DNA from: a virus
Taxonomy: Duplodnaviria > Heunggongvirae > Uroviricota > Caudoviricetes
Strand: one strand, 5' to 3'
Length of the DNA stretch: 64,000 nucleotides
IMG/VR virus record: IMGVR_UViG_3300050026_000241
Part shown: piece after piece, positions 10,693 through 62,808 of the stretch
Numbering within the stretch: the stretch's first letter is position 1
How the letters are laid out: every line of letters begins with the position of its first letter
The notes under the pieces: generated by a model
What the model saw: the letters and a program-made list of their open reading frames with translations, nothing else
Told to the model about the DNA's origin: nothing
Database searches by the model: none
Translations under genes and position numbers: made by a program

Positions 10693-10720
10693 TTGACTTC
10701 TGGCCAAACTATGGTATATA
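10693..10720 (+). promoter_or_regulatory. sigma70-like promoter cassette
   Basis: TTGACT-N16-TGgTATATA; ATG 10728 ~7 nt after -10 (leaderless). Confidence 0.55.
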
Positions 10721-10727
10721 TTAAGAT

Positions 10728-11648
10728 ATGGAATTCATTCGCACGAAGAAGCGCGGTCAAAGTGCAAAAACATATCGCACTTGGCTCGCTGACGACGACT
10801 ACAGGATTGTATGGCGTAAGGAAGCGTTCGGCGTCGAAATGACGCCGGCCTACATGGCGTGTGTTAAGGTCATGGTTCCTAACGTCGGACAGGATTGGTA
10901 CACAACGCCCGAACTAGAGCGCGGCAAGCCGAAGTCCGCCGTCATGTGGGACTTCGTTGACCCGGCCCGCCACCTGCAAAAGAAGCTGAAAACCGCGCAA
11001 GAGACGTGCGAAAAGCACAAACGGCTCTGGACTAAAGCCTGTGACACCACGGGCATTCGCGGCATCATTGAACTTTTCGGTAAGGTGCCGTCTGCCGTGC
11101 CGCTGTGGGTGAAGAGCAAGCTACCCAAGAAAGTACTTGAAGTTCTCACCCGGCCGCCACACCTTTTTTACGAGGATGAAGAGGAATGTCAAGCACCTAC
11201 GCTGCCGGATGGCCCCGAAACAAGCCAGTCCGACCCTATCGCAATCTCTCCGACTTTGTTTCAAAATACCAATACCTCTCCAAGCGAGAGTGGCCCTGTC
11301 TCGCCTGCCGAGGCCGAGGATGGGACTACGACCCGGAAGACCCGGAAGACCCGGAAGACCCACCGTGCCCGGTCAAAGGGAACCGAGGTCGAAACACCAT
11401 CCCCTGCGCCGCCTGCGGAGGCACCGGCGAAGGCACCGGCGAAGGGAGCCGGCCAGCACCTGCTGGATTCTACTGCGCCGCCTGCGGAGGCACCGGCGAA
11501 GGGACGAAAGCCGCGTGTGTCAAAGCCTACCGGGAAGCCATCCAAAGGTTCAAAGCGGAAGCCGACGACTACAAAAGGCTCGCGCAAGTCCGCAAAGAAC
11601 TCCGCGAAGGGCTCTCGAAAGAGCAAATCCGCGCCATCAAAGAACTAG
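10728..11648 (+). CDS. hypothetical protein with basic K/A/P-rich low-complexity tail
   Basis: first gene led by the cassette promoter (ATG at TSS); frame ambiguous after ~11186. Confidence 0.45.
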   Translation: MEFIRTKKRGQSAKTYRTWLADDDYRIVWRKEAFGVEMTPAYMACVKVMVPNVGQDWYTTPELERGKPKSAVMWDFVDPARHLQKKLKTAQETCEKHKRLWTKACDTTGIRGIIELFGKVPSAVPLWVKSKLPKKVLEVLTRPPHLFYEDEEECQAPTLPDGPETSQSDPIAISPTLFQNTNTSPSESGPVSPAEAEDGTTTRKTRKTRKTHRARSKGTEVETPSPAPPAEAPAKAPAKGAGQHLLDSTAPPAEAPAKGRKPRVSKPTGKPSKGSKRKPTTTKGSRKSAKNSAKGSRKSKSAPSKN

Positions 11649-11656
11649 GAATTTAA
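11186..11656 (+). CDS. alternative overlapping ORF, Cys-rich (CxxCxGxG x3)
   Basis: GAGGA 5 nt upstream of ATG; CLACRGRGW, CAACGGTGEG twice; non-low-complexity C-terminus. Confidence 0.3.
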   Translation: MSSTYAAGWPRNKPVRPYRNLSDFVSKYQYLSKREWPCLACRGRGWDYDPEDPEDPEDPPCPVKGNRGRNTIPCAACGGTGEGTGEGSRPAPAGFYCAACGGTGEGTKAACVKAYREAIQRFKAEADDYKRLAQVRKELREGLSKEQIRAIKELGI

Positions 11657-11731
11657 CGTGAACGCCGAGTCGCTTATCCAGCGGCTTACAATCAGAACAA
11701 CCGATACAGAGTGAATTCCGAAAGATTCTAT

Positions 11732-11759
11732 TTGACTTCTCCGAATCAGATGGTATACT
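11732..11759 (+). promoter_or_regulatory. sigma70-like promoter cassette
   Basis: TTGACT-N16-TGgTATACT; ~65-nt leader to ATG 11824. Confidence 0.55.
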
Positions 11760-11823
11760 TGAATAGTCTTTGAGATAGTGCCATTACGGTATTAGTCCTG
11801 AGACAACACCTTTGGAGAGTACT

Positions 11824-12315
11824 ATGAAAACCGCCGACTATGAATCCTTAGCAGAGGCCGAGTTCTACATCTATGCCTACTTTGACGAGAAGGATGTGCC
11901 AATCTACATCAAAGCTGGCCGTGGCGACCAGGCTCATTCGCACATTCAAGGATGTCAGGCGGTATTCCGTGACAACAATTCGCCGGCTTTCTACCGGAAA
12001 CTCCGCGACATGCTTTATAAGAATTTGAAGCCGACTGTCCGCATCATTGCCGAGAATCTGACACAAGTTGAAGCGTTTGAAGTGTGGGAAGATTTCTTCA
12101 TCCAAGCCATCGGCCAACAAAGACTGGGCACCGGCCCGCTGCTGAACGAACACTTGAACGGCGACGGGGATGCTCAGGAACTTCACCCGCGCGTGGCACG
12201 GCCGCAACAACTCGCACACGCGCGCCCACATCGTACCCCGGCACGTTCCACCGTTCGACAGCAGCTTGAAATCGAATGGCAGACCGATTTGCAGACCGAA
12301 TTGCTGGCAACGTAA
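11824..12315 (+). CDS. GIY-YIG-like domain protein
   Basis: FYIYAYFDEKDVPIYIKAGRG resembles GIY...YIG; cassette promoter ~90 nt upstream; Arg-rich tail possibly over-extended. Confidence 0.4.
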   Translation: MKTADYESLAEAEFYIYAYFDEKDVPIYIKAGRGDQAHSHIQGCQAVFRDNNSPAFYRKLRDMLYKNLKPTVRIIAENLTQVEAFEVWEDFFIQAIGQQRLGTGPLLNEHLNGDGDAQELHPRVARPQQLAHARPHRTPARSTVRQQLEIEWQTDLQTELLAT

Positions 12316-12422
12316 TCATCCGGCAGTCCAAACGCGCCAAGGTTGGCGATGCTGCCGGGTGGCGAGCGCCTTCTTGCGAGACTCGTCACCACCCGGCAGC
12401 AATTCGACTGTGACCACACACA

Positions 12423-12617
12423 ATGCAAAAGACAGACCGTTTGAACCAACTGATCGCGGACATTCGCCGCGAGGCCCCGCACGTCGGCAAGAAGCCGTAC
12501 AGCCACAACATTATCCGAACCGCTTTGAGTATCATCGCCGACGAGTTTGGCGTCGAGGAAGCCAATAAGGTCGTCCGAAAACTCAGGCTGCATCGGAGAG
12601 GATTCAACGAAGAGTAA
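12423..12617 (+). CDS. hypothetical protein
   Basis: 64-aa ORF. Confidence 0.4.
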   Translation: MQKTDRLNQLIADIRREAPHVGKKPYSHNIIRTALSIIADEFGVEEANKVVRKLRLHRRGFNEE

Positions 12618-12621
12618 TTCA

Positions 12622-12924
12622 ATGACGAGTAAAGCCAAGGCAACAAAACTGTCGGACCCGACGCCGTTCAGAACAGTGGCGGACGAGCGAATCTCAAAAC
12701 GCACAAGCGAAAAGCAAACCCTACAAACCCTGCGTGAACAAGTACAAGCGGGTAAAAGTGACGCCAAGGTGAAGGCAGTGCTCGCCCAGATCAAGAGCAA
12801 GTTTGGGGACGCCGCCTTCGAGAAAGAACTTCGCGCCTACGCCGTGACCAAGGCCGGCGTCAAAGGTGCGCAAGACGTGAGGCTACCGCCCGGCGTCAGC
12901 CCGAATGTGGGAAGGAACAAGTAA
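12622..12924 (+). CDS. basic small protein, PARAKKLD/KFGD family copy 1
   Basis: array of 5 tandem paralogs; shared N-terminal K..ARAKKLD-like and QIxxKFGD[AE][EA][YF] motifs. Confidence 0.5.
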   Translation: MTSKAKATKLSDPTPFRTVADERISKRTSEKQTLQTLREQVQAGKSDAKVKAVLAQIKSKFGDAAFEKELRAYAVTKAGVKGAQDVRLPPGVSPNVGRNK

Positions 12925-13211
12925 TGGGCAAGGCACGCGCAACACGACTCAACCGGCAAGTGCCCTTGAAGCTGGCGACAGACAGCCAAGCAAAGAAGGC
13001 CGCCGAACAGGCGACAAACAAGGCCCGAATGAAGGCGATGGGCAAGCCGGCAACCAAGGAAGAAAAGCTGAAACTGGCTGTCGCCCAGATTCATGCCCGA
13101 GACTCGGAAGCCTTCAAGCAGCACGCCGAGACCAGGAACGACATGCCGGCTCGCGGCATCGACAAAGTTGGTTTCATACCCAACGACCCCTCAATGGCAA
13201 AGGTAAAGTAA
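12924..13211 (+). CDS. basic small protein, family copy 2 (divergent)
   Basis: MGKARATRLN..., LAVAQIHARDSEAFK. Confidence 0.45.
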   Translation: MGKARATRLNRQVPLKLATDSQAKKAAEQATNKARMKAMGKPATKEEKLKLAVAQIHARDSEAFKQHAETRNDMPARGIDKVGFIPNDPSMAKVK

Positions 13212-13498
13212 TGGGGAAGAAACCAACACCGGCGAGAGCCAAGAAGCTCGATACGAGCGTACCGATGCGGGGCAGAAGCGTCGGTATCGAACCGCCAAAG
13301 ACTGGCCGCCCGCTGCCAGCAACACCCAAGGCAGGGCCGGCGAAAGCCACTAGCAAGGATGCCGCGCTGCAAAAGATTCGTCAGAAGTACGGCGAAGACG
13401 AGTACCACAGGGCGCTGGACGAATACCAGAAAACCTTCCGTGGTGAGCAGCGAACCAACAGCGAGATTCGCAACAAGGATAACAGCCATGCGAAGTAA
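13211..13498 (+). CDS. basic small protein, family copy 3
   Basis: KKPTPARAKKLD; QKIRQKYGEDEY. Confidence 0.5.
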   Translation: MGKKPTPARAKKLDTSVPMRGRSVGIEPPKTGRPLPATPKAGPAKATSKDAALQKIRQKYGEDEYHRALDEYQKTFRGEQRTNSEIRNKDNSHAK

Positions 13499-13823
13499 AC
13501 CGCAACCAGCGCGAGCCAAGAAGCTCGATATGACACGACCGCTGCATACTGTGCCGGCCCAAGCCGACAGGTCTGTGCCCAAGGCAGACAAGCGGACAGT
13601 CCGCAACAAGACCGAACTCGCTGCCTTGCGTGAGCAAGTGAAGCAGGCGGCGGCCACAGAGGGCGGCCGTCAGAGTCAAGCCGCCAAGCTGGCTCTGGGC
13701 CAGATCGAGGCCAAGTTCGGTGACGCCGAGTACCGCAAAGCCATGCGTGAGAACAACTTGACGTACAAAGGGCATCAAGACATGCCCATCAACGTCCTGC
13801 CTGGAAAGGGGCCGGTCCAATGA
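13488..13823 (+). CDS. basic small protein, family copy 4
   Basis: KPQPARAKKLD; LAALREQV; QIEAKFGDAEY. Confidence 0.5.
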   Translation: MRSKPQPARAKKLDMTRPLHTVPAQADRSVPKADKRTVRNKTELAALREQVKQAAATEGGRQSQAAKLALGQIEAKFGDAEYRKAMRENNLTYKGHQDMPINVLPGKGPVQ

Positions 13824-14203
13824 GCAAGCCGTCGAGCAAGAAGCCACAACCCGCCAGAGCCAAGAGACTCGACAGAGAAATGCCGCTGCGGGCTACGCGA
13901 ATGGGCGTCGGCCAGCAAGAGTCGCGGCCGACTATTACCAAAGAGGTAAAGCCACCGGCCCAACTCACGGCGTTGCGTGAGAAAATCCGGGCTGAAAACA
14001 GCGGTAAGAATGACAACGCCCGTGCCCGAACAGCGAACGTCCAAAGCACCTTGGAGCAGATTCGAGTCAAGTTCGGTGACGAGGAATACCGCGCGGCCGT
14101 GCAGGATTTCAAGACAGACTTCCGCGAGTTTGACAAGATCAACTTGCTCAGAAATAAGGGGCCTGGGGTGCAACCCAAAGACCACTTGCAAACCCCTCCC
14201 TGA
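13820..14203 (+). CDS. basic small protein, family copy 5
   Basis: KKPQPARAKRLD; LTALREKI; QIRVKFGDEEY. Confidence 0.5.
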   Translation: MSKPSSKKPQPARAKRLDREMPLRATRMGVGQQESRPTITKEVKPPAQLTALREKIRAENSGKNDNARARTANVQSTLEQIRVKFGDEEYRAAVQDFKTDFREFDKINLLRNKGPGVQPKDHLQTPP

Positions 14204-14218
14204 CAACAAGGCCGACAA

Positions 14219-14626
14219 ATGGGCGACAAGATTGCCGACATGCTTGCATCTTTGCAGCAGTATACCGCCAGCATCAAGCTAGGATGCAACCATGCTGCCC
14301 GTATAATCATACTATCACACCGGTTTACAGTCCTGAACGACATCTTCAAGGAAATGAATAGCGCGTTGCTCGTCGAACACGAGTCCGTGAAAGAAATCCT
14401 TGACGCCGGCACCGACCCGCAGCCACCAGCATACGTGGCTTTCATGGCCCATTACGAGGAATTCAAGGTGATCCACAAGCTGATGCAGGATACGGCCAAG
14501 GAAATACAGGAAGAGAAGGGCTTCGTCGATTGGCACATGGACAATGGAATCATGCCGGATTACAACGAGGTCGTGAAGCACTTGAAAGATGTCATAGGGG
14601 AGCAAGGAAACACGAATGTTAATTGA
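14219..14626 (+). CDS. hypothetical protein, paralog pair member 1
   Basis: TDPQPPAYVAFMAHYEEFKVIHKLMQDTAKE aligns with 14616 paralog. Confidence 0.5.
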   Translation: MGDKIADMLASLQQYTASIKLGCNHAARIIILSHRFTVLNDIFKEMNSALLVEHESVKEILDAGTDPQPPAYVAFMAHYEEFKVIHKLMQDTAKEIQEEKGFVDWHMDNGIMPDYNEVVKHLKDVIGEQGNTNVN

Positions 14627-15242
14627 AATTATCACAGTCGAGCAATTCAAGGTGTTGCTGGACTACGACATTGCCGAGAAAATAGCCAATGACCGGCTAG
14701 CCCGCTTAGAGACGCTCAACAACAGAGTCAGCATGTTGGCCGTGTTATACACGGAGCTGTGCCGCAGGCTGTATGTCGAGTGTGAGGATGCCAGGGAGAT
14801 TGTCGAAGCGACAGAGAACCCGCAGGCAACAGCCTACGTTGAGTACGTGTCCCATTACGACGCTTCCAATGTGGTCTACGATCTGATGCAGGAAGCAACG
14901 AAAGAAGCCAATACGGAAGCAAGCTATCTCGCCTGGTTCAAAACAATGACGTTTGACCCCGCATACAAGGCGGCGATAGAATTGATTAAAGGTAAGAGGG
15001 ACGAAGGGACGAAGGGTGAAACAGTGCAAGATATAACGCTAAACGAAGATATAACGGACGCAGCCGAAGATATAACGGACGCAGCCGAAGAAGCCTTAAT
15101 TGAGGAAGTTAAAGGTCTTGACGCCGATGACTTGCTCGATGCTTGCGAGCATGTCCTTGGATTAAATCATCCAGCGACAAAGGCACTGCGTTTTGAAGTT
15201 GAGCGCATCAATGGTGAACATGAAACACCGGGGAGTCTCTAA
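14616..15242 (+). CDS. hypothetical protein, paralog pair member 2
   Basis: TENPQATAYVEYVSHYDASNVVYDLMQEATKE; internal repeat EDITDAAEx2. Confidence 0.5.
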   Translation: MLIEIITVEQFKVLLDYDIAEKIANDRLARLETLNNRVSMLAVLYTELCRRLYVECEDAREIVEATENPQATAYVEYVSHYDASNVVYDLMQEATKEANTEASYLAWFKTMTFDPAYKAAIELIKGKRDEGTKGETVQDITLNEDITDAAEDITDAAEEALIEEVKGLDADDLLDACEHVLGLNHPATKALRFEVERINGEHETPGSL

Positions 15243-16087
15243 TGTGGTTGAATCTATCAACAACCTTTCCCTCTGCTCCGGTGGTGGCGGGCTCGACATC
15301 GGACTTGAACTCGCTCTCGGAGCGGTTCGCACGGTCTGTTGGGTGGAGTGGGAAGCCTTTGCCATCGAGTACATTGCGAAAGCGATGGAAAACGGCGGCT
15401 TGGATAAAGCACCTATTTGGACTGACGTGCGCACTTTCGACGGACGACCCTGGTGTGGCGTCGTGGATAGCATCACTGCGGGCTACCCGTGTCAACCGTT
15501 CAGCTATGCGGGTGACAGACATGGACAGGATGATCCTCGTCACCTGTGGCCACACGTCGCTCGAATCGTTGGCGAAATTAAACCCACACTCGTCTTTCTC
15601 GAAAACGTGTCAGGACACCTTACCCTTGGGTACGATCAAGTCGCTGCCGATCTTGACAAACTGGATTACACAGTTGCGACAGGACTCTTCACAACGTCAG
15701 AAGTTGGCGGAAGCCAAAAACGAGAGCGGCTTTTCACTGTGGCCTGCGCCGGCCGCGACCATGACAACAGGCGAAGACAAGGATGCGAGCTGGGTTCCCG
15801 GTCAGAAGCCGACACGGTGGGGGAAAGTAGTACAAACAGCGTTGACCACCTGTGCCAAGATTTGGATGCGGGACTACCTCTCTTCCCTCCGCGACCGGAC
15901 GACTATGAAACCTGGACCGCCCTGCTCAAAGACACCCAAAACCAAAGGCTCGCCCCTGCGCTTGAACCCGACCTTCACTGGCTGGCTGATGGGATGGCCG
16001 AACTTCGGTTGCACGGCAACGGAGTGGTCCCGCTACAAGCAGCGTATGCGTTCTGCTCTCTGTGGTCTGTTTTGCGAAACGAAGTAG
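15220..16087 (+). pseudogene. DNA (cytosine-5)-methyltransferase split across two reading frames
   Basis: frame of 15220: motif I LSLCSGGGGLD, motif IV GYPCQPFSYAG, motif VI ENV, motif VIII QKRERLF; frame of 15242 downstream: TRD LWPAPAATMTTGEDKD and motif IX-like RLNPTFTGWLMGWPNFG; switch at T4 run ~15731-15734. Confidence 0.55.
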
Positions 16088-16091
16088 CCAC

Positions 16092-17018
16092 ATGAACATC
16101 TTCTACAAACATCCGAGAAGCGGTATGGTTGTTTGGCCCGCTGACTGGACCGACCGCCACTTCAACTGTAATGAACCCTGTGACGTGCTCATCGGTGCGT
16201 GCTCTTGTGGAGCATGGCACAATGAAAACGAAGAATGGGTGCGCCAGATTTTACTCGACCACAACGCAATCATCCTAGAAAGACCTGACATGCCTCTCTA
16301 TTGTCCGAATTGCCGCTCGCAACTCGACCCCACGAATGCCGTTAAGCAGCATATTAGCTGCGCCATGTGCTTCTGGATGGGTATGCTCAAGGACTGCCTC
16401 AAGGAGCTGCCGTCGCGCATCGGGATGCCGTATGTATCTATTGATTTAGAGACAACCGGCCTGAACCCTGATTATTGCCAGCTTCTTGAGATCGGTGCGG
16501 TATACGACGACGGCAGATTCATTGACGAATTACCGGTCTTCCATAAGTACGTCTACAGTCCTGACGGCCGCTATACTGGCGAACCATTCGCCCTGCAAAT
16601 GAATGCAAAAATCTTAAAGCGGCTGTCGAGCATTTCCGAGGCCGATAAACAGAACAAGGTGTGCGTGCGGCCGGATGAAGTGGCCGAGTGTTTCCGTCAA
16701 TGGTTAATTGAAGCCTGTGGGTGGGACGGTAAAACCTGTATCACCCCGGCCGGCAAGAACTTTGCCAGCTTCGACAAGCAGTTTCTCTACCGACTCCCCG
16801 GCTGGACCGAGAAAGTGAAGCTGAACCATAGGACGCTGGACCCGGCCATGCTCTGGTGGAACCCGTTGACGGACGACAGGCTGCCAGGCAGTCAAGAGTG
16901 CATGGACCGCGCCGGGCTCAAGGGCACCGTTGCCCACACCGCCGTCGAAGATGCGGAAGTTGTAGTCAGGCTTATCCGGTTGGCAGTCAGGCAGGGGCGA
17001 GTCAAGTGGAGCGATTAA
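16092..17018 (+). CDS. DEDDh 3'-5' exonuclease (DnaQ-like) with Cys-rich N-terminal domain
   Basis: Exo I VSIDLETTGL; Exo II GKNFASFD; Exo III HTAVEDA. Confidence 0.7.
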   Translation: MNIFYKHPRSGMVVWPADWTDRHFNCNEPCDVLIGACSCGAWHNENEEWVRQILLDHNAIILERPDMPLYCPNCRSQLDPTNAVKQHISCAMCFWMGMLKDCLKELPSRIGMPYVSIDLETTGLNPDYCQLLEIGAVYDDGRFIDELPVFHKYVYSPDGRYTGEPFALQMNAKILKRLSSISEADKQNKVCVRPDEVAECFRQWLIEACGWDGKTCITPAGKNFASFDKQFLYRLPGWTEKVKLNHRTLDPAMLWWNPLTDDRLPGSQECMDRAGLKGTVAHTAVEDAEVVVRLIRLAVRQGRVKWSD

Positions 17019-17653
17019 CCCTTTCACACCCTGCCACCTCGCAAGATGCCTGGGTCATTGAGACTCTTGGACGTAGGCGCGGTGGTTTCTTCGTAGAGAT
17101 CGGTGGCTACGACGGCGTTACGCACAGTAACACACTGGCTCTGGAACGCAGTTTTGATTGGGATGGCTTGCTGGTGGAAGCCAACCCGGACCACTACAAG
17201 AAGATGGTGGAGTACCGGCCAGCGTGCCAGCATGACAACCGGGCCGTGAGTGTCAGCACCGGCAGTGATGTCAGATTCACTAAAGCCGGTCAGTGGAGCG
17301 GTCTGACCGACTTTCTGCCCGAGGCTTGGCAGCAAGAGTACGACGACCGAAACGCGCCGACCTTCTGGGTGAAGACGGTCAAACTGCTTGACTTGTTCCG
17401 AGAGCACAACGTACCGAGAGTCATTGACTACTTCTCGCTCGACATTGAAGGCGGGGAATTACCTGTGTTGCGGGAGTTTTTCCGATTCGGCCACACCCTG
17501 TTTCGTTTTCGCTGCATGACCGTCGAATACCAGATGGACGGCGGCAACCTCATGCGCTTGGAACGCTTACTTGGACCCCACGGCTACACGCTTGAAAAGG
17601 TGCAAGCGTGGGACGCCTTCTTCGTCAACCGAGACCTTTTGGAGACCCAATGA
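17006..17653 (+). CDS. FkbM-family methyltransferase
   Basis: FVEIGGYDG; IDYFSLDIEGGELPVL; GTG start overlapping upstream gene. Confidence 0.6.
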   Translation: MERLTLSHPATSQDAWVIETLGRRRGGFFVEIGGYDGVTHSNTLALERSFDWDGLLVEANPDHYKKMVEYRPACQHDNRAVSVSTGSDVRFTKAGQWSGLTDFLPEAWQQEYDDRNAPTFWVKTVKLLDLFREHNVPRVIDYFSLDIEGGELPVLREFFRFGHTLFRFRCMTVEYQMDGGNLMRLERLLGPHGYTLEKVQAWDAFFVNRDLLETQ

Positions 17654-17913: not shown

Positions 17914-17935
17914 GAGCGCGCACAACTCGCGCCCG

Positions 17936-17954
17936 TTTTACGACTCTCTATGTG
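17936..17954 (+). promoter_or_regulatory. T7-like single-subunit RNAP promoter candidate
   Basis: TTTTACGACTCTCTATGTG vs T7 TAATACGACTCACTATAGG; same element recurs at ~23029. Confidence 0.45.
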
Positions 17955-18282: not shown

Positions 18283-18310
18283 TTGACTTCTGCGGAATAG
18301 CCGGTATACT
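18283..18310 (+). promoter_or_regulatory. sigma70-like promoter cassette (orphan; drives hairpin transcript)
   Basis: TTGACT-N16-cGgTATACT; no ORF before next cassette at 18432. Confidence 0.45.
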
Positions 18311-18431: not shown

Positions 18432-18459
18432 TTGACTTCTACGAAAAAGGTGGTATGAT
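18432..18459 (+). promoter_or_regulatory. sigma70-like promoter cassette
   Basis: TTGACT-N16-TGgTATGAT; ATG 18466 leaderless. Confidence 0.6.
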
Positions 18460-22998: not shown

Positions 22999-23028
22999 TT
23001 TTCTGACCGCGCGCACAACCAACTTCCG

Positions 23029-23047
23029 TTTTACGACTCTCTATGTG
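23029..23047 (+). promoter_or_regulatory. T7-like single-subunit RNAP promoter candidate
   Basis: TTTTACGACTCTCTATGTGGAGG; ATG 23063 16 nt downstream; shares ~40-nt upstream context with 17936 copy. Confidence 0.45.
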
Positions 23048-45043: not shown

Positions 45044-45071
45044 TTGACTTCTGCCGGGCACATGCTATGAT
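45044..45071 (+). promoter_or_regulatory. sigma70-like promoter cassette
   Basis: leader to 45116. Confidence 0.6.
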
Positions 45072-48706: not shown

Positions 48707-48734
48707 TTGACTTCTGCAAACCACATGGTATAGT
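48707..48734 (+). promoter_or_regulatory. sigma70-like promoter cassette
   Basis: TGgTATAGT; leaderless ATG 48741. Confidence 0.55.
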
Positions 48735-49323: not shown

Positions 49324-49351
49324 TTGACTTCTCACAACCACATGGTATAGT
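49324..49351 (+). promoter_or_regulatory. sigma70-like promoter cassette
   Basis: identical -10/start context to 48707 copy; leaderless 49358. Confidence 0.55.
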
Positions 49352-50386: not shown

Positions 50387-50410
50387 CTTTCGCGCGGCAC
50401 ATGATAGAGT
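50383..50410 (+). promoter_or_regulatory. sigma70-like promoter cassette
   Basis: TGaTAGAGT; leaderless 50417. Confidence 0.5.
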
Positions 50411-50716: not shown

Positions 50717-50744
50717 TTGACTTCTTGCAATCACATGCTATGAT
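50717..50744 (+). promoter_or_regulatory. sigma70-like promoter cassette
   Basis: leaderless 50751. Confidence 0.6.
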
Positions 50745-50750: not shown

Positions 50751-50969
50751 ATGAGCGACGAACTTGCTATCCTTGACGCCCTGTGGACAACGCTCCGTAT
50801 CCGGTTGCACGGTCCTTTCATCGGCGTAGGATATTTCATTGTGAAAGACCTGGGGGCCTGTGCCGAGAGGATTTGGACCGGGGAAGATTGGGGCCGTGCC
50901 CCGAAATACTACCCCACCTTGCAAGCCGCCTTTGACGACTTGCCTAACATCTGCCGGTTTCTGACTTGA
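50751..50969 (+). CDS. hypothetical protein
   Basis: cassette promoter, leaderless. Confidence 0.5.
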   Translation: MSDELAILDALWTTLRIRLHGPFIGVGYFIVKDLGACAERIWTGEDWGRAPKYYPTLQAAFDDLPNICRFLT

Positions 50970-51001
50970 CTTTCGACTTGACTTTCGACTTGACTTTCGA
51001 C
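50962..51001 (+). repeat. 12-nt tandem iterons TTGACTTTCGAC x3 merging into true -35
   Basis: seen directly. Confidence 0.8.
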
Positions 51002-51029
51002 TTGACTTCTCTCCGGCACATGCTATGAT
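51002..51029 (+). promoter_or_regulatory. sigma70-like promoter cassette preceded by three extra -35 iterons
   Basis: leader to 51065. Confidence 0.6.
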
Positions 51030-51500: not shown

Positions 51501-51529
51501 TTGACTTCTTGCGGCCACATGCTATTCTT
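51501..51529 (+). promoter_or_regulatory. sigma70-like promoter cassette (variant -10 TATTCT)
   Basis: 17-nt spacer; leader to 51550. Confidence 0.45.
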
Positions 51530-52042: not shown

Positions 52043-52070
52043 TTGACTTCGCCCCGGCACATGATATGAT
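52043..52070 (+). promoter_or_regulatory. sigma70-like promoter cassette
   Basis: leader to 52103. Confidence 0.6.
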
Positions 52071-52503: not shown

Positions 52504-52531
52504 TTGACTTCTTCAAACCACATGGTATGCT
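52504..52531 (+). promoter_or_regulatory. sigma70-like promoter cassette
   Basis: TGgTATGCT; leaderless 52537. Confidence 0.55.
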
Positions 52532-53161: not shown

Positions 53162-53189
53162 TTGACTTCTCACCGTCACATGGTATGAT
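53162..53189 (+). promoter_or_regulatory. sigma70-like promoter cassette
   Basis: leader with 21-nt duplication to 53244. Confidence 0.6.
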
Positions 53190-53243: not shown

Positions 53244-53693
53244 ATGTTTTTCGACGCCACCGAATTGCAAGAAGTCCTGGGCACCGTCACCTGCCCGCAC
53301 ATGAAACGGGCCTTTCGCAACCGAAGCCCTATCACGGTTTCCCTCTGGAATCGGGCCGCTTTCAAGTTGACCGGCGACCACTATAACGGCGGCGCGATCT
53401 ATGCCGCTTGTAGCCGGTATTGCAGCAAAATGGGAGTTTTCGACGGCGGCAAAATGACACCCGGCAACTGGCAAGAGATTGCCGGCAAACTGCCTGGGTT
53501 TATTGCGGACCCGCCCGAATTGGCCCTGAGCCGCTACAGGTACGAAGTGCGCCACGGCCTGACGGACAGCCGGCAAGACAGCGATTACCCGGCCGGGAAA
53601 TTCCGGCTTGACTTTTCCCCGGCACATGTATATAGCTTGATTAAGTTAAATCTGTTCCCCGGCAGGGAACAAACCGACAAGAGGATATTATGA
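53244..53693 (+). CDS. hypothetical protein
   Basis: leader has 21-nt duplication; 3' end encodes next promoter (true stop may be earlier only if sequence differs). Confidence 0.5.
   Translation: MFFDATELQEVLGTVTCPHMKRAFRNRSPITVSLWNRAAFKLTGDHYNGGAIYAACSRYCSKMGVFDGGKMTPGNWQEIAGKLPGFIADPPELALSRYRYEVRHGLTDSRQDSDYPAGKFRLDFSPAHVYSLIKLNLFPGREQTDKRIL
53609..53636 (+). promoter_or_regulatory. sigma70-like promoter cassette inside upstream CDS
   Basis: TGtATATAG; leader with small hairpin to 53690. Confidence 0.5.
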
Positions 53694-54151
53694 GACTTAA
53701 CGCATCGTCCGCCGAAATCGTAAAAGTTCTACGGCGTTACGGCTATGACGTTTCCTTCCCCGTCGAAATCGACTTGCAAGAGTATCAGGCGAAGGTCACC
53801 CTGACCGGCAACCGGCGCGCCCTTGTATCGAAGAACGATCAAGGCGGATGGGTAATGGAATACGCGAAAATTTACCCGGACAAGTTGACCTATCACGATC
53901 ATCTTTGCATCTACAACGCCCTCACCCGCGAGGGCGTGCGCCTTATGGCCCTCTGGTATGACAGCCTATGCGAGCCGGCTCTACGCGATAAGGCCGCCGA
54001 GTATTCGGCAGACTTGAACCAGAATAATTATCTCAAGTGCAAGGTGGAACGGCTATTGAAAGCCGAGCGCAACCGGCAACTTGCCGCCGAGCGAGCCGAG
54101 CAAGCCGCCGCCCTGAAATCTGACTTGACTTCTTCAAACCACATGGTATGA
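53690..54151 (+). CDS. hypothetical protein
   Basis: internal cassette promoter; 3' end encodes the next cassette promoter. Confidence 0.5.
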   Translation: MRLNASSAEIVKVLRRYGYDVSFPVEIDLQEYQAKVTLTGNRRALVSKNDQGGWVMEYAKIYPDKLTYHDHLCIYNALTREGVRLMALWYDSLCEPALRDKAAEYSADLNQNNYLKCKVERLLKAERNRQLAAERAEQAAALKSDLTSSNHMV

Positions 54152-54152
54152 T
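54125..54152 (+). promoter_or_regulatory. sigma70-like promoter cassette
   Basis: near-identical to 52504 copy; ATG 54161. Confidence 0.6.
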
Positions 54153-54526: not shown

Positions 54527-55090
54527 ATGCAAAACAAAACCATCGCCAAGAAGGTAGACGAAATCGAACGACAGATTAACACCGGCCGTTCTGCCCTGCA
54601 CGCGCCAACGGGCAAGAAGGCCGATTCCGCAATGTTTGACGCCCAGCGTTACGCTATCGGCTTTTCGTACCGGGCAAGAGAAGGCCACCTTACACCGAAG
54701 GGCTTGATTATCAACGCGAACCGTCTAGCCCGCCTGATTGCCGCCGCCCGCCCCACCGTTCCCGCTATCGACGGTATCGCCCTTAACGCCCTTACCCGCG
54801 CCCAAATGGCCGCCAACGCCCTTGCCGCCGCCTTGCTACCGGCCCCGGCCCCGGCAGTAAGCGGGCCGGCGAAACAAGCGACAAAACGACCGACTATGAA
54901 TCAAAACGAATTCATTGTCAAGGCCGATGCCGCGAAAGATCAAGCCCAGGTTTACTTTCGCAACCGGCGTTTGACCCTCCGGCAGTACGGTTGCATACTC
55001 CGTAACATCGGAGCAACCGTCAAGAAGCACGAAACCGAATCGGCCCCGGCAGAAAGCCGCCTTGCCGAGATTTTGCAAAAGTTGACTTGA
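54527..55090 (+). CDS. hypothetical protein
   Basis: 187-aa ORF. Confidence 0.5.
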   Translation: MQNKTIAKKVDEIERQINTGRSALHAPTGKKADSAMFDAQRYAIGFSYRAREGHLTPKGLIINANRLARLIAAARPTVPAIDGIALNALTRAQMAANALAAALLPAPAPAVSGPAKQATKRPTMNQNEFIVKADAAKDQAQVYFRNRRLTLRQYGCILRNIGATVKKHETESAPAESRLAEILQKLT

Positions 55091-55114
55091 CTTCTCCCCG
55101 GCACATGGTATGAT
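55087..55114 (+). promoter_or_regulatory. sigma70-like promoter cassette (doubled -35)
   Basis: GTTGACTTGACT; leader to 55151. Confidence 0.6.
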
Positions 55115-56016: not shown

Positions 56017-56262
56017 ATGAGCAGCAAGAAGAATCGACCGAAACCCGCCGCCAAAACCCTGCGCGACAAGAAGAAAGCGAAAGACACCCGCTGCGCGAAA
56101 CGGAAAGAGCGGGCCTGGGCCGCGAAATTGACCGCCCCGGCCCTGCCGACTTGGAAGCGACCGCCCGGCCCCTTGCCGCCACCCGGCCCCTTGCCGCCAC
56201 CTGCGGCCGGCGAAAATAGCCACTTGGATTCTGGCTTGACTTCTCCCCGGCACATGGTATGA
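56017..56262 (+). CDS. basic hypothetical protein with PGPLPP x2
   Basis: 3' end encodes next cassette promoter. Confidence 0.45.
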   Translation: MSSKKNRPKPAAKTLRDKKKAKDTRCAKRKERAWAAKLTAPALPTWKRPPGPLPPPGPLPPPAAGENSHLDSGLTSPRHMV

Positions 56263-56263
56263 T
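56236..56263 (+). promoter_or_regulatory. sigma70-like promoter cassette
   Basis: leader to 56293. Confidence 0.6.
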
Positions 56264-56983: not shown

Positions 56984-57011
56984 TTGACTTCTTCCCGGCA
57001 CATGCTATGAT
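56984..57011 (+). promoter_or_regulatory. sigma70-like promoter cassette
   Basis: leader to 57055. Confidence 0.6.
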
Positions 57012-57632: not shown

Positions 57633-57660
57633 TTGACTTCGCCCCGGCACATGGTATGAT
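57633..57660 (+). promoter_or_regulatory. sigma70-like promoter cassette
   Basis: leader to 57694. Confidence 0.6.
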
Positions 57661-58269: not shown

Positions 58270-58297
58270 TTGACTTCTCCCCGGCACATGCTATGAT
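58270..58297 (+). promoter_or_regulatory. sigma70-like promoter cassette
   Basis: leader to 58351. Confidence 0.6.
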
Positions 58298-58669: not shown

Positions 58670-58697
58670 TTGACTTTTACCCGGCACATGGTAGAGT
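58670..58697 (+). promoter_or_regulatory. sigma70-like promoter cassette
   Basis: TGgTAGAGT; leader to 58728. Confidence 0.55.
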
Positions 58698-58727: not shown

Positions 58728-59132
58728 ATGTTCAACACCGAGCGAGCCGAAGCCACCGTGAGACTTGATACCGCTATCCGATTCCGACAAATGGGCGGGG
58801 GTTACTGGTATCCCGATACGACCACCGACCGCAACGCTATCAAGTTGGCAGGGGTCAAGACTTTCAAGCCGACGAAGACCGAGGATGAAATCCTGACGCA
58901 ACTTTCCGGGGTTGCCTTTTGCGAATTTCTGACGCCGCCCCTGGGCCGCAACAGCGAGAAGGCCGCCCTCGTTACCGCCTTTCAAGCGCGGCAAACCGCC
59001 TACGCCGCCCAGCCCCTAAGCGACCGTGACGCAAAGCGGCTTGCAATCGTCGAAACCGCGCTTGAGCAACTGGAATACCCCACGGCCGAAGCTATCGACG
59101 CCGCCGCGCATATTCTGGAAATGCTGGCTTGA
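58728..59132 (+). CDS. hypothetical protein
   Basis: cassette promoter + leader. Confidence 0.55.
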   Translation: MFNTERAEATVRLDTAIRFRQMGGGYWYPDTTTDRNAIKLAGVKTFKPTKTEDEILTQLSGVAFCEFLTPPLGRNSEKAALVTAFQARQTAYAAQPLSDRDAKRLAIVETALEQLEYPTAEAIDAAAHILEMLA

Positions 59133-59156
59133 CTTCTCTCCGGCACATGGTATGAT
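59129..59156 (+). promoter_or_regulatory. sigma70-like promoter cassette
   Basis: leader to 59206. Confidence 0.6.
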
Positions 59157-59739: not shown

Positions 59740-59767
59740 TTGACTTCTCCCCGGCACATGGTATGAT
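59740..59767 (+). promoter_or_regulatory. sigma70-like promoter cassette
   Basis: leader to 59799. Confidence 0.6.
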
Positions 59768-60336: not shown

Positions 60337-60364
60337 TTGACATTGCCCCGGCACATGGTATGAT
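60337..60364 (+). promoter_or_regulatory. sigma70-like promoter cassette (-35 TTGACA)
   Basis: leader to ~60407. Confidence 0.5.
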
Positions 60365-60583: not shown

Positions 60584-60611
60584 TTGACTTCTTAGAGGCA
60601 CATGGTAGAGT
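60584..60611 (+). promoter_or_regulatory. sigma70-like promoter cassette
   Basis: TGgTAGAGT; leader to 60654. Confidence 0.55.
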
Positions 60612-60852: not shown

Positions 60853-61044
60853 ATGCACAACATTCGCCTATCATTGACGCCGGCCGGCTGGGTTGCCCGG
60901 TACACTGACCCGGAGATTTACCGGCTATTCAAGACCGTCACCTTATTGACCACTTTCACGGCCAACGCCGCGCCTATGGCCGTTCTAGCGGAAATTAGAC
61001 GACTTAACCCGGCCGCCGATGTTCAACTAGACCTGGGAGATTGA
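60853..61044 (+). CDS. hypothetical protein
   Basis: 3' end shares CAACTAGACCTGGGAGATTGA with ~36268. Confidence 0.45.
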   Translation: MHNIRLSLTPAGWVARYTDPEIYRLFKTVTLLTTFTANAAPMAVLAEIRRLNPAADVQLDLGD

Positions 61045-61062
61045 CTTGACTTCGCCCCGGCG
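61035..61062 (+). promoter_or_regulatory. sigma70-like promoter cassette (doubled -35)
   Basis: TGgTAGTAT; leader with (CAACG)n to 61128. Confidence 0.55.
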
Positions 61063-61069
61063 CATGGTA

Positions 61070-61105
61070 GTATTAAGTAACAACGCAACGCAACGCAACG
61101 CAACG
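61070..61105 (+). repeat. (CAACG)n pentanucleotide repeat in 5' leader
   Basis: 5-6 units; exact count uncertain. Confidence 0.7.
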
Positions 61106-61390: not shown

Positions 61391-61612
61391 ATGGCAGCGA
61401 TTGCAACATTCAACGGCCGCAATATGAAAACCATACGCCGGGCCGATGCCACGTCTTTCGGACCCTCTTCCGGGGGTCAAGACGGCCGCAACGAAACACA
61501 TGCAAAGCGGGAAGTAGCGGAAGAAGTTGCCGCCCGACTTACACAACTCGATTACCTTTTCCCTACCCAAAAACGACCCCAGAAACGACCCCAGAAACGG
61601 AGCAGCAAATGA
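61391..61612 (+). CDS. hypothetical protein
   Basis: KRPQKRPQK from 12-nt duplication. Confidence 0.45.
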   Translation: MAAIATFNGRNMKTIRRADATSFGPSSGGQDGRNETHAKREVAEEVAARLTQLDYLFPTQKRPQKRPQKRSSK

Positions 61613-61767
61613 AACCCATGCGAACGTACAAGGACAAAAATAACCTGACCGGCACGGCCGCCGAACTCGCTACAATCGAAAAGGTCCGCACGGAGTTTCA
61701 AGCGGAATGGCTTTTGCAGAAGGCCCGCCTGACGCGCAAGACGGCCGCCGCCAAGAAGCGGGCTTAA
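61609..61767 (+). CDS. small basic protein
   Basis: 52 aa; ATGA overlap; approximate. Confidence 0.35.
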   Translation: MKPMRTYKDKNNLTGTAAELATIEKVRTEFQAEWLLQKARLTRKTAAAKKRA

Positions 61768-61799
61768 CTTTCAACTTAACTTTCGACTTAACTTTCGAC
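61768..61799 (+). repeat. 12-nt tandem iterons CTTAACTTTCGA(~x3) upstream of -35
   Basis: seen directly. Confidence 0.75.
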
Positions 61800-61827
61800 T
61801 TGACTTCGCCCCGGCACATGGTATTAT
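61800..61827 (+). promoter_or_regulatory. sigma70-like promoter cassette preceded by 12-nt iterons
   Basis: TGgTATTAT; leader to 61852. Confidence 0.55.
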
Positions 61828-61851
61828 TGAGTAACCTAACAGGGAGAAATC

Positions 61852-62124
61852 ATGGCAAAAAACAACGGCAAATGCAGCGAGTGTAACAAGAGCCTGCGCA
61901 TCAGCGTAGAGCAGTTTATCGGCCCCGCCAAGAGTAAGCCGATTGCCCCCGGCACTACAATGCCGGGTGGCACTACAACCTGCATAAAGCAACTAAGCGG
62001 AACAAGCTGGTGCGCGGATTTTCGCGTAGGAAACTGGGCAATCATCGACGGCCGCAAAATCTGCACGACCTGCGCAGAAGCTAAACTCGACCCGAACAAT
62101 CACCCGGCACTTGAGCCGACTTGA
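61852..62124 (+). CDS. Cys-rich hypothetical protein
   Basis: CSECN...CTTC. Confidence 0.5.
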   Translation: MAKNNGKCSECNKSLRISVEQFIGPAKSKPIAPGTTMPGGTTTCIKQLSGTSWCADFRVGNWAIIDGRKICTTCAEAKLDPNNHPALEPT

Positions 62125-62168
62125 GAATCGACTTGAGAATCGACTTGAGAATCGACTTGAGAATCGAC
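62117..62168 (+). repeat. 12-nt tandem iterons CGACTTGAGAAT x4 upstream of -35
   Basis: seen directly. Confidence 0.8.
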
Positions 62169-62196
62169 TTGACTTCTCCCCGGCACATGGTAAGAT
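62169..62196 (+). promoter_or_regulatory. sigma70-like promoter cassette preceded by 12-nt iterons
   Basis: TGgTAAGAT; leader to 62258. Confidence 0.55.
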
Positions 62197-62257
62197 TGAG
62201 CATACAAACAACGCAACAGGAACAACACAACAGGAACACCGCAACAGGAACACCGCT

Positions 62258-62563
62258 ATGAAAATCACCGGAAGCAAGTTTGCAACAATGGCCGCCGCCG
62301 TCAAGGCCGTTGTCGAATACGCTGGGGGACCGCGAGCCATTATGGCCGCCTATGACCGATACACCGAGAAACGCCTGATATGGGACTTGTGGCACGCCGC
62401 AAGCCACAATATCCTCTATGATGACGCGCACCCTCAATTTGCCCTGGGATACTGCACCCGCGTCTATCCGCACGTTCCGAACTTCGATATTTACAGTGAC
62501 GGGGTTTACGATTCGCATATCGAAACGGCACTTTTTAAGATTTGGCGTGAAATTGCCGCTTGA
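62258..62563 (+). CDS. hypothetical protein
   Basis: leader has CAACAGGAACA x3. Confidence 0.55.
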   Translation: MKITGSKFATMAAAVKAVVEYAGGPRAIMAAYDRYTEKRLIWDLWHAASHNILYDDAHPQFALGYCTRVYPHVPNFDIYSDGVYDSHIETALFKIWREIAA

Positions 62564-62587
62564 CTTCTCCCCGGCACATGGTAAGAT
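62560..62587 (+). promoter_or_regulatory. sigma70-like promoter cassette
   Basis: TGgTAAGAT; leader to 62623. Confidence 0.55.
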
Positions 62588-62622
62588 TGATTAACAGTCA
62601 AACAACAACAGGAACAACAGAA

Positions 62623-62808
62623 ATGCACACCAAGCTAAAACAAGCCGTCATCCAATTCATCTTTGACAACCTGAATGAGTTTCAGTTAGTCAACGCCACC
62701 GTCGCACACTTCCGACCCTACATATACGACAGCAAAGGCGAATACCTAATCGGCGGAAAAGAAGTCGCCGGCTTCATCGTCAACGCCGCCAGACTTATCG
62801 CGTCCTAA
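62623..62808 (+). CDS. hypothetical protein
   Basis: cassette promoter + leader. Confidence 0.5.
   Translation: MHTKLKQAVIQFIFDNLNEFQLVNATVAHFRPYIYDSKGEYLIGGKEVAGFIVNAARLIAS

Follow-up and report, generated by a model that had tools for sequence, protein, structure and literature searches.

A recurrent, predicted sigma70-type promoter cassette coincides with module boundaries in a small-gene array of an uncultured phage

The current work concerns a 64,000 nucleotide stretch of DNA (IMG/VR record IMGVR_UViG_3300050026_000241, Caudoviricetes), referred to as the window, and a short element which recurs along it in front of small genes and which an earlier reading of the sequence (the original prediction) had described as about 46 copies of a sigma70-type promoter cassette. 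All genes of the window are located on the + strand and approximately 89% of the sequence is coding. The encoded proteins include several DNA methyltransferases (N6/N4, C5 and D12 types), an FkbM-methyltransferase/glycosyltransferase fusion, an RNase T-like exonuclease, a DUF4417 protein, a Thg1-like protein, a radical-SAM protein, SPFH proteins, HNH endonucleases, the product of a TnpB-like open reading frame (ORF) and many ORFans. The window holds no structural or replication gene, and no capsid or terminase was seen in it.

The element spans 28 nt and has the general sequence TTGACTTCT-N6-CACATGgTATGAT, that is, TTGACT-N16-TATGAT. A position weight matrix (PWM) built from the cassette copies was applied with a threshold of 12 bits, and 20 Markov shuffles scored with the same matrix served as controls. 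This motif scan, which had been proposed earlier and was run here in PWM form, retrieved 45 sites of at least 12 bits on the + strand (10693-62587), 42 of which reach at least 20 bits, the maximum in the shuffles being 6.7 bits; the first site starts at 10693 and the last at 62560. Together with a 46th + strand copy at 45697, a variant with a 17 nt spacer, the predicted number of about 46 copies is reproduced. Both hexamers, TTGACT and TATGAT, are exact in 25 copies, as compared to 0.05 expected. A generic sigma70 scan of the 44-64 kb interval returned 46 promoter-like sites versus 9.8 +/- 3.6 in shuffles, nearly all of these sites being TTGACT-16-TATGAT with TG. The literal 31 nt pattern composed of TTGACT, 16 nt and TGgTATGAT has zero matches because TGg represents the last 3 nt of the 16 nt spacer.

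The cassettes are unevenly distributed. None was found by the PWM scan in positions 1-10692, in agreement with the absence previously noted for the first 10.6 kb, and none is present in the 18.7 kb upstream of the window, which were recovered from other assemblies of the same genome. From 38695 onward there are 35 cassettes, spaced by a median of 588 nt (about one per 600 bp, as had been estimated), and 33 fall within the last 24 kb, for which approximately 36 had been claimed. The assignment of all copies to one strand holds for the 45 sites on the + strand, but not for a single PWM site on the minus strand (38563).

Information within the cassette is confined to three blocks, namely an extended -35 (cTTGACTTCT), the sequence CACATGgTATGAT corresponding to the -10 with its TG extension and four further upstream bases, and TGAgTA immediately after the -10, with mid-spacer positions carrying only 0.2-0.6 bits; such confinement argues for functional constraint and not for a block repeat. 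The -35 hexamer TTGACT matches TTGACA at five of six positions (1.7-2.2 bits per position) and the -10 hexamer TATGAT likewise matches five of the six positions of TATAAT, with T1, A2 and T6 at 1.9-2.2 bits and looser middle positions, amounting to 10 of the 12 positions of the sigma70 hexamer consensus. The TG of the extended -10 reaches 1.9 and 1.6 bits, and 45 copies have a 16 nt spacer, the remaining one a spacer of 17 nt. Conservation past the hexamers, as originally pointed out, is real but bounded, with nothing conserved beyond about -10 or +20 besides the leader modules. The spacer consensus TCTCCCCGGCACATGG, which occurs 22 times with at most three mismatches (0.64 expected), describes the subfamily of copies at 51-62.6 kb (..CCCCGGCACATGG), but not those at 18-36 kb (..GAAAAGGATG.) and 38-50 kb (..AATCACATG.). 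The similarity of spacers falls with genomic distance (Spearman r = 0.52, a value that 0 of 2000 permutations reach).

Terminator-like sites are not in excess (30 versus 30.6 in shuffles), the minimum free energy (MFE) of the 45 nt upstream of the cassettes is -9.8 versus -8.6 +/- 4.2 at random positions and gives no hairpin signal, and the fold z-scores for -40..+28 and -10..+45 average +0.18 and +0.32, with 7% below z = -2 as in the controls. An identity as terminator, hairpin or promoter-early stem-loop (PeSL) was rejected, given that there was no excess over shuffles or random positions. The fold analysis revealed no palindromic or attC-like structure at the cassettes, and neither terminal inverted repeats nor target duplications are present at the cassette. 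No clear AT-rich tract precedes the -35; a weak 'aaat'-like preference (0.2-0.3 bits) is confined to -9 to -6. By direct reading, no frame stays open across the cassette and the start of the leader (TGA occurs at offsets 1, 24 and 28, TAG/TAA at 32), so that any incoming ORF is closed. Genes and cassettes are closely packed, and the upstream ORF ends at the TGA within T-TGA-CT at 36490, 39037, 40372, 46517, 50383, 55087, 59129 and 62560. Two kinds of local repetition were also observed, these being 5 nt duplications of the -35 (TTGAC-TTGACT at 36139-36149, 55082-55092 and 61041-61051) and 12 nt tandem repeats (x3.7 to x4.7) directly 5' of three cassettes (50958-51008, 61763-61806 and 62117-62172), the first of which contain -35-like TTGAC boxes. 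Both may be scars left by slippage or recombination, or may act as decoy -35 boxes.

The position of the cassettes relative to genes is equally regular. An ATG-initiated ORF of at least 30 aa begins within 64 nt downstream, in the same orientation, for 44 of the 45 cassettes, which bears out the view that the copies stand in front of genes. The distance between the -10 and this ATG is sharply bimodal. For 15 of the 45 cassettes (16 when the copy at 45697 is included) the ATG is located at +5 to +8 after TATGAT without a Shine-Dalgarno (SD) sequence, the background frequency of an ATG-ORF at +5 to +8 being 3.4% (binomial p = 1e-11 for 15 of 45). Another 29 cassettes are followed by leaders of 21-64 nt, which typically start with TGAGTA(G/A)GTTCA, continue with units of the CAACA/CAACG type and end in CAACAGGGAGCAAC-N3-6-ATG. 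These leaders consist of 44% A, 27% C, 20% G and 10% T, and are predicted to be unstructured (MFE of -0.056 kcal/nt versus -0.163 for length-matched random window sequence). Seven of them contain tandem repeats, including (CA)14.5, (CAACG)6.8 and duplicated SD units, which are absent from the orthologous leaders of relatives. The +5 to +8 class is predicted to give rise to leaderless mRNAs, the AUG being at or close beside the predicted 5' end of the transcript. An SD precedes the majority of the phage genes, and the host is thus apparently not a generally leaderless organism. This dichotomy between leaderless-type starts and CA-rich leaders behind one promoter type had been overlooked in the original prediction, as had the lack of terminators and the precedent of the PeSL elements. 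A gene for ribosomal protein bS21 (PF01165), located next to a DNA ligase gene upstream of the window (L089 8796-8966), is a notable observation given the leaderless-type third of the promoter array.

The claim of a separate copy for nearly every gene past 38.7 kb proved to be overstated, as the interval 38.7-63.3 kb contains 62 called genes and 35 cassettes, or approximately 1.8 genes per cassette, and slightly more than half of these genes possess a cassette. Two of the 44 promoter-proximal proteins have a Pfam match and 42 have none; it had been held that nothing here is individually annotatable, which is largely correct, but functional hints were obtained behind some cassettes for an extracytoplasmic function (ECF) sigma factor, an HNH endonuclease and a protein with a weak Lar-like match. 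A role of the array genes in host takeover or anti-defence is plausible by analogy. The proteins behind different cassettes are mutually unrelated, with the exception of one pair (36177/36523), and the repeats do not, therefore, represent tandem duplications of gene plus promoter, a possibility which was rejected on these grounds.

Relatives were retrieved by scanning metagenome contigs with the exact pattern, yielding 70 contigs, most of which belong to the series Ga0074044-46, Ga0181527/33 and Ga0209039/40; L018, L050, L051, L056, L069 and L074 were excluded since they contain single look-alike sites in unrelated DNA. Over part of their sequence the relatives mostly share 73-90% identity with the window, and their cassettes form dense arrays on the same strand, as illustrated by L041 with 11 cassettes in 7.9 kb. 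Approximately 12 cassette-bearing contigs (e.g. L038, L028, L063, L005 and L007) have no nucleotide similarity to the window, and these retain the same non-hexamer positions and both mRNA classes. The positions kept across diverged relatives are the TCT past the -35, CACA at -20 to -17 and TGAgTA. Among 141 non-redundant cassettes of relatives, 28 ATGs were found at +5 to +8 and almost none at +9 to +25, followed by a broad peak at +32 to +40. The occurrence of such arrays in diverged relatives indicates a conserved property of a phage group and not a recent amplification in a single genome.

Comparison of these contigs with the window locates the cassettes at the borders of rearranged segments. 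Of 73 internal homology-block starts, 31 fall within -30 to +10 nt of a cassette start, where 5.6% would be expected (7.5-fold enrichment, p = 7e-20). A cassette is present at 29 of the 30 non-collinear junctions (18 indels or replacements and 12 rearrangements), as compared to 6 of 12 collinear ones. The blocks of L041, for instance, follow each other in the order w49k, w50k, w61k, w57k, w58k, w55k, w51k. In L053 and L072, w36524 directly adjoins w61796, from which it is separated by 25 kb in the window, and the high-scoring segment pairs (HSPs) to the two parental sequences overlap by 38 nt inside the cassette; at the w59177|w55070 junction of L041 and L067 the HSPs to both parents overlap by 65 nt. 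At the w57422|w50998 junction (L025, L041) the end of one gene is directly followed by the cassette of another, and the module between cassettes 44084 and 45044 is occupied by another gene in L033 and L066. Seven of these junctions are each shared by contigs of two or three different samples, and exact repeats common to different cassettes do not exceed 39 nt (the paralogous pair apart), which makes assembly chimeras unlikely. In L086 (ERR14884525), which is 99.5% identical to the window, the 61-aa gene 62623-62808 is absent; the deletion joins the similar SD-ATG segments aacaggaacaacagaaATG and aacggggagaaccgaaATG, thereby fusing the leader of cassette 62560 to gene 62829.

Promoters and module boundaries thus coincide. 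Cassettes of orthologous genes retain the constrained positions and differ in the variable spacer, and a cassette in an orthologous position is often nearer to a non-orthologous one (e.g. 5 mismatches to the ortholog versus 0), which points to exchange or conversion among cassettes. Since the same 30-45 nt or so return every 600 bp in one orientation, they would also work as portable homology. Junctions at cassettes being observed, the mechanism that we infer is homologous recombination in or near the cassettes (about 30-45 nt of near-identity), which would move, replace and delete promoter-leader-gene modules and would also homogenise neighbouring cassettes. The original proposal of a unit dispersed by duplication or recombination can be retained as far as modules are re-ordered, replaced and deleted at cassettes, but not as regards tandem duplication. 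The individual cassettes are listed in Table 1.

Table 1. Positions of the cassettes and of the associated sigma factor gene within the window
Feature	Position	Strand	Score (bits)	Downstream start	Remarks
Cassette, weak variant	10693-10720	+	13.6	leaderless-type, ATG 10728, 7 nt past -10	sole copy with upstream hairpin
Cassette	11732-11759	+	38.4	64 nt leader	gene 11824-12315
Cassette	18283-18310	+	24	no ATG-ORF within 130 nt	next cassette 149 nt downstream (tandem promoters?)
Cassette	18432-18459	+	33.3	leaderless-type, ATG 18466	
Cassette variant	28548-28575	+	20.4	25 nt leader	TCGACT..TATAAT; precedes ECF sigma gene 28601-29185
ECF-type sigma factor gene	28601-29185	+			behind cassette 28548; candidate reader of second motif, not of cassette
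Cassette	31614-31641	+	27	leaderless-type, ATG 31648	
Doubtful weak site	32885-32912	+	13.1		within gene 32406-32969
Cassette	33512-33539	+	34.4	leaderless-type, ATG 33546	
Cassette	36144-36171	+	35.1	leaderless-type, ATG 36177	TTGAC duplication upstream; downstream gene paralogous to that of 36490, only such pair
Cassette	36490-36517	+	36.9	leaderless-type, ATG 36523	joined to w61796 in L053, L072
Sole minus-strand copy	38536-38563	-	20		points into 1.1-kb stretch without convincing ORF
Cassette	38695-38722	+	44.5	leaderless-type, ATG 38729	
Cassette	39037-39064	+	34.9	30 nt leader	upstream ORF stop is the TGA of TTGACT
Cassette	40372-40399	+	44.4	34 nt leader	
Cassette	41209-41236	+	41.4	34 nt leader	
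Cassette	41691-41718	+	44	60 nt leader	(CA)14.5 in leader, not in orthologous leaders of relatives
Cassette	43505-43532	+	40.9	leaderless-type, ATG 43539	
Cassette	44084-44111	+	32	38 nt leader	module 44084-45043 swapped for other gene in L033, L066
Cassette	45044-45071	+	43.1	44 nt leader	
Cassette variant	45697-45725	+		leaderless-type, ATG 45732 (D12 methyltransferase)	17 nt spacer, TTGACT..TATACT
Cassette	46517-46544	+	40.8	leaderless-type, ATG 46551 (HNH-like protein)	
Cassette	48163-48190	+	32.6	35 nt leader	
Cassette	48707-48734	+	37.5	leaderless-type, ATG 48741	
Cassette	49324-49351	+	38.2	leaderless-type, ATG 49358	
Cassette	50383-50410	+	21.3	leaderless-type, ATG 50417	
Cassette	50717-50744	+	40.9	leaderless-type, ATG 50751	
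Cassette	51002-51029	+	43.8	35 nt leader	12 nt repeat x4.2 with -35-like boxes upstream; after w57422 in L025, L041
Cassette	51501-51528	+	33.2	21 nt leader	
Cassette	52043-52070	+	40.2	32 nt leader	
Cassette	52504-52531	+	39.4	leaderless-type, ATG 52537	
Cassette	53162-53189	+	43.8	54 nt leader	21 nt tandem duplication including SD in leader
Weak/degenerate copy	53608-53635	+	13.6		-10 shifted; within gene 53244-53693; intact in L023, L034
Cassette	54125-54152	+	42.4	ATG 54161, 8 nt past -10	
Cassette	55087-55114	+	46.7	36 nt leader	consensus; TTGAC duplication upstream
Cassette	56236-56263	+	46.7	29 nt leader	
Cassette	56984-57011	+	44.2	43 nt leader	
Cassette	57633-57660	+	43.4	33 nt leader	
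Cassette	58270-58297	+	45.5	53 nt leader	duplicated SD unit (GCAACAGGGA x2.4) in leader
Cassette	58670-58697	+	29.6	30 nt leader	
Cassette	59129-59156	+	45	49 nt leader	crossover to w55070 inside cassette in L041 and L067
Cassette	59740-59767	+	46.7	31 nt leader	
Cassette	60337-60364	+	32.7	42 nt leader	TTGACA
Cassette	60584-60611	+	32.9	42 nt leader	duplicated SD unit in leader
Cassette	61046-61073	+	34.4	54 nt leader	(CAACG)6.8 in leader; TTGAC duplication upstream
Cassette	61800-61827	+	40.8	24 nt leader	12 nt tandem repeat x3.7 upstream
Cassette	62169-62196	+	43.2	61 nt leader	14 nt repeat x3.6 in leader; 12 nt repeat x4.7 upstream
Last cassette	62560-62587	+	43.2	35 nt leader	first gene 62623-62808 deleted in 99.5%-identical L086

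The reading of the element as a sigma70-type (group 1) promoter with an extended -10 TGnTATGAT and TGAgTA as conserved discriminator, already put forward in the original prediction, is strongly supported by its sequence and arrangement, i.e. the 10 of 12 hexamer matches, the 16 nt spacer, the TG, the 45:1 strand bias and the coupling to ATG codons. Host RNA polymerase with its housekeeping sigma70 would read the cassettes, probably early in infection, each cassette heading a short unit of about 1.8 small genes, whose function is mostly not assigned, in an accessory arm of approximately 50 kb with no terminators between units. Two kinds of mRNA would result, about one third being leaderless and about two thirds having a 21-64 nt A/C-rich leader that ends in the CAACAGGGAGCAAC SD module; both the promoter strength and the leaderless translation are deduced from sequence. 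We consider it probable that a promoter family, two leader classes and cassette-mediated recombination of modules together account for the array.

The ECF-type sigma factor listed in Table 1 is full-length (TIGR02937, 44.5 bits versus a cut-off of 42.9), and its best subfamily match is a Bacteroidetes-type one, below the cut-off of that subfamily. ECF (group 4) sigma factors do not possess region 3, the part which contacts the extended -10 TG. For this reason, and because its own gene sits behind cassette 28548, this protein is an unlikely reader of the cassette. A second motif, GCGCGCACAA(C)-N-CGTTTTACGACTCTCTATGTG(G/A)A, was observed in four copies, all intergenic and on the + strand, at 17935-17954 and 23028-23047 of the window and at 7615-7645 and 15219-15260 of L089 (motif positions 7615 and 15241), which places the latter two approximately 11 and 3.4 kb before the first position of the window. 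It is confined to the cassette-free replication and DNA-modification modules. Its arrangement suggests that it is the better candidate target for the ECF sigma factor, in a cascade from host sigma70 to phage ECF sigma in which the cassette-driven factor may switch on a second promoter class of replication and modification genes. The core of this motif equals the T7 promoter TACGACTCACTATAG at 13 of 15 positions, although the motif is bipartite, and this resemblance makes a phage single-subunit polymerase an alternative reader.

Several points weigh against the explanation favoured here. Conservation of TCT, CACA and TGAgTA is not required by the standard contacts of sigma70, and an additional factor could be involved. 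Phage and host are both uncultured, and reading by the sigma70 of the host is extrapolated from an E. coli-type consensus. An array without terminators should accumulate read-through from upstream, which would be an odd design, and the proposed early timing and host-takeover role are drawn from analogy. The accumulation of junctions at cassettes could in part reflect survivorship, if only intergenic breakpoints are viable; some breakpoints are inside genes or leaders (e.g. w54847 and L086), and the relatives are short metagenome contigs. Taken further, this argument leads to ordinary strong promoters kept similar by selection, with shuffling taking place anywhere by general or illegitimate recombination and cassette junctions being the surviving breakpoints at gene boundaries; the cassettes would still be promoters, but would play no particular part in recombination. 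That conservation tracks functional promoter positions and forms no uniform block, that breakpoints also occur in genes or leaders (w54847; in L086, between two SD-ATG regions) and that shared exact identity is short (not above 39 nt) would all fit such a view. It does not account for the overlap of parental HSPs within cassettes (38 and 65 nt), for function-free spacer positions which are more alike in neighbours and are swapped between non-orthologous positions, or for the contrast between non-collinear and collinear junctions, and we regard it as unlikely. An alternative in which a phage-encoded or phage-modified factor (the ECF sigma, an appropriator or an activator) reads the cassette, so that the array would form a phage-specific temporal class that is not necessarily the earliest, draws on the presence of a sigma-family protein and on the non-canonical TCT, CACA (-20 to -17) and TGAgTA, which are kept in relatives without gene-level nucleotide similarity. 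With the sigma gene behind a cassette, however, the cassette must fire before the sigma exists; the TG is among the most conserved positions, the second motif (GCGCACAAC..CGACTCTC, 4 copies) offers a better target, and ECF promoters are not known to resemble TTGACT/TATGAT, which makes this alternative quite unlikely.

The cassette might in addition double as a site-specific recombination site, in an integron-like or mini-circle process in which a phage recombinase recognises the non-hexamer positions. Cassette-bounded modules are inserted, deleted, replaced and transposed by up to 25 kb, the TTGAC-TTGACT duplications (36139, 55082, 61041) and the 12 nt repeats could be recombination scars, and a study of PeSL elements (PMC4122927) leaves the possibility open. 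No integrase, recombinase or transposase domain was detected among approximately 136 proteins scanned, apart from a weak TnpB-like match that is unrelated to the array; this, the lack of palindromic or attC-like structure and the fact that breakpoints are not at one fixed nucleotide render a site-specific process highly improbable. A related and very unlikely extension of these ideas would be that the cassette is a dedicated, portable gene-boundary module which combines a promoter, three-frame closure and the choice of a leaderless or enhancer-leader start, a phage factor that recognises the conserved non-hexamer positions actively excising and inserting promoter-ORF units; if true, it would amount to promoter-based, integron-like cassette exchange in an uncultured lineage, which may be coupled to translational takeover (bS21 is encoded and a third of the array is leaderless-type). 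That the repeat is no promoter at all, and instead serves as an operator or protein-binding site, in termination, packaging or replication, or as a miniature mobile element (a binding site or terminator had been named in the original prediction as a refuting outcome), is scarcely credible when set against the lack of a hairpin or T-tract, the terminator counts and fold z-scores given above, the missing terminal inverted repeats and target duplications, the fixed 16 nt hexamer spacing with TG, the strand bias shared with the genes, and the 5-8 nt ATG coupling in one third of the copies, which is expected only if transcription starts there.

As regards the genome, the 18.7 kb upstream of the window represent a replication module encoding an Mre11-like phosphoesterase, a ParB_N protein, an 832-aa family-A DNA polymerase, a DNA ligase, NT5C and bS21. 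No match of the polymerase in a deposited phage exceeds 35% identity or covers more than 25% of its length, and megablast searches with 12-14 kb pieces revealed no nucleotide match among deposited phages. As judged by its polymerase family, the phage is a member of an uncultured lineage which is not T4-type; its phage status is deduced from gene content, single-strand organisation and the IMG/VR membership of the cassette-bearing L001 and L002, and IMG/VR holds almost no members of this lineage. A 100%-identical genome is present in several other samples (L003, L077-L085), and the upstream methyltransferase has an identical copy on a 97,254 nt contig. A supposed relationship to L004 proved to be a chance match. 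The huge phages LR756501 and LR745208 were discarded as close relatives, since only the radical-SAM protein is shared (plus the Thg1-like protein in LR745208), and no cassette was found in the 41-kb regions examined. With respect to the host, the SD of most genes and the E. coli-type promoter argue against Bacteroidota. Weak hints toward Bacteroidota come from the label of the metagenome-assembled genome (MAG) containing L088, from the best ECF subfamily match and from the radical-SAM relatives. In L088 (CAVSGB010000324.1, a 'Bacteroidetes' MAG, 2689-3012), the one match from a scan of genome contigs, the last 320 nt or so are 85% identical to window positions 61493-61770, cassette included, and the rest of the stretch has 40% GC; this contig is probably chimeric or mis-binned and was left out of host assignment; the protein encoded at 45116-45616 was likewise set aside as a taxonomic marker, being widespread in phages of many Proteobacteria.

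Further observations concern the remainder of the sequence. Window positions 1-17653 and L089 10001-16111 contain unusually many methyltransferases, namely D12 (two), MT-A70, N6_N4 (two), C5, FkbM-type (two, one of which is GT1-fused) and Methyltransf_23-type, a richness which suggests extensive DNA modification; the same stretches encode an RNA ligase, DeoC, the Thg1-like protein and the radical-SAM enzyme, whose closest relatives are 52-56% identical and are found in huge phages of 485-735 kb. Approximately 1.1 kb (37594-38700) lacks a convincing ORF on either strand and holds the minus-strand cassette as well as 22 nt and 12 nt direct repeats. No Rfam match at E <= 1 was obtained for 37.5-38.75 kb, the fold z-score of +0.53 led to rejection of a structured RNA in the region into which the minus-strand cassette points, and for the whole window no Rfam family at the gathering threshold and no tRNAs were found. 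The ORF 26392-27726 (444 aa, with a weak Cas12f1/TnpB-like TNB domain) is flanked by two copies of AACGCAACA (26367-26384) and two of the reverse complement TGTTGCGTT (27758-27776), and may with these flanks constitute an IS200/IS605-type or TnpB element. A perfect 12 nt tandem repeat (AAGACGGTCGAG x5.5, 28412-28477) is located within ORF 28046-28540, and two independent assemblies break at about 28440-28448, where the 47-kb contig behind L077 ends and L003 starts. The CCGCCCCG/poly-C tail at 63828-64000 is an assembly artefact; the independent assemblies L082 and L085 continue instead into repeat-rich non-coding DNA with a direct repeat of approximately 57 nt (GGCAGATCGAAACCGAGC.CC..GACTCTGCGAAAAATGGAACACGGTTGA) followed by many CGACCGGCACAATCGTTA-like repeats, which may be the genome end or an origin region.

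The array is a natural set of approximately 46 near-isogenic promoters (about 190 with relatives) which differ mainly in mid-spacer and leader type, and which would be suited to studies of the determinants of promoter function and translation initiation. In addition, approximately 60 small ORFans stand out as an accessory set which is likely to be co-regulated and which could be screened for host-takeover or anti-defence activity.

The motif CACATGGTATGAT was not found in any of the papers searched, and a 71 nt query comprising cassette and leader gave only chance matches among deposited phages. Known systems nevertheless share some of its features. The early promoters of T4, T5 (PN25) and T7 (A1-A3) are multiple, very strong and read by host sigma70, serve small takeover genes early in infection and are conserved past the hexamers, this extra conservation being mainly in A/T-rich UP-like and downstream regions; here it consists of TCT next to the -35 and of CACATG and TGAgTA on either side of the -10, and the array is denser (one per approximately 590 bp over 24 kb) and its copies are closer to identity. 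Leaderless mRNAs include lambda cI from PRM, and are abundant in Actinobacteria, Deinococcus-Thermus and their phages, such as Thermus phages. The ATG 5-8 nt past the -10, the lack of an SD and the predicted transcript start at or beside the start codon are comparable, whereas in the present array 15 leaderless-type starts alternate with 29 SD-leadered ones behind the same promoter. Integron cassettes are promoterless, separated by structured attC sites and recombined by IntI. They resemble the present array in forming one-direction series of small, unrelated and mostly uncharacterised genes with a recurring short element and in the cassette-wise gain, loss and re-ordering of genes, but the recurring element is here a promoter without palindrome, and the scan of the window proteins revealed no integrase, so that the analogy is limited to the outcome.

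The closest parallel is provided by the PeSL cassettes of the T4-type phages RB49/phi1, PST/T4 and nt-1/KVP40 (Arbiol et al. 2010, PMC2839356; Comeau et al. 2014, PMC4122927). PeSLs are described there as sigma70-consensus early promoters, about 50 per genome, located upstream of ORFans in hyperplastic regions and at indel or replacement junctions, with a proposed shuffling of modules, possibly via mini-circles; site-specific recombination is left open (PMC4122927). Both systems have approximately 50 near-consensus sigma70-type promoters per genome, concentrated in regions of small ORFans and usually just 5' of an ORFan, with SD and start at the 3' end, and both have copies at insertion, deletion and replacement junctions between related phages, where a role in modular shuffling is proposed. 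The array described here differs in that its promoters are not accompanied by a stem-loop or terminator, be it internal, overlapping or upstream, and are not preceded by a clear AT-rich tract, and in belonging to a phage with a family-A polymerase (not the gp43-type family B), 55% GC and no close cultured relative. One third of its copies are leaderless-type and the others have CA-rich, repeat-built leaders, and terminators are lacking across its 24 kb, two features not mentioned for PeSLs in the parts of these reports that were consulted. The array is, accordingly, functionally PeSL-like but not a PeSL array, as the defining stem-loop terminator is missing. This comparison suggests that promoter-mediated modular shuffling, of which T4-type phages have so far been the sole described case, extends to an unrelated uncultured lineage and that the stem-loop half of the PeSL is dispensable for it, and it supports a more general rule whereby densely repeated regulatory sequences can act as the recombination scaffolding of phage accessory regions.

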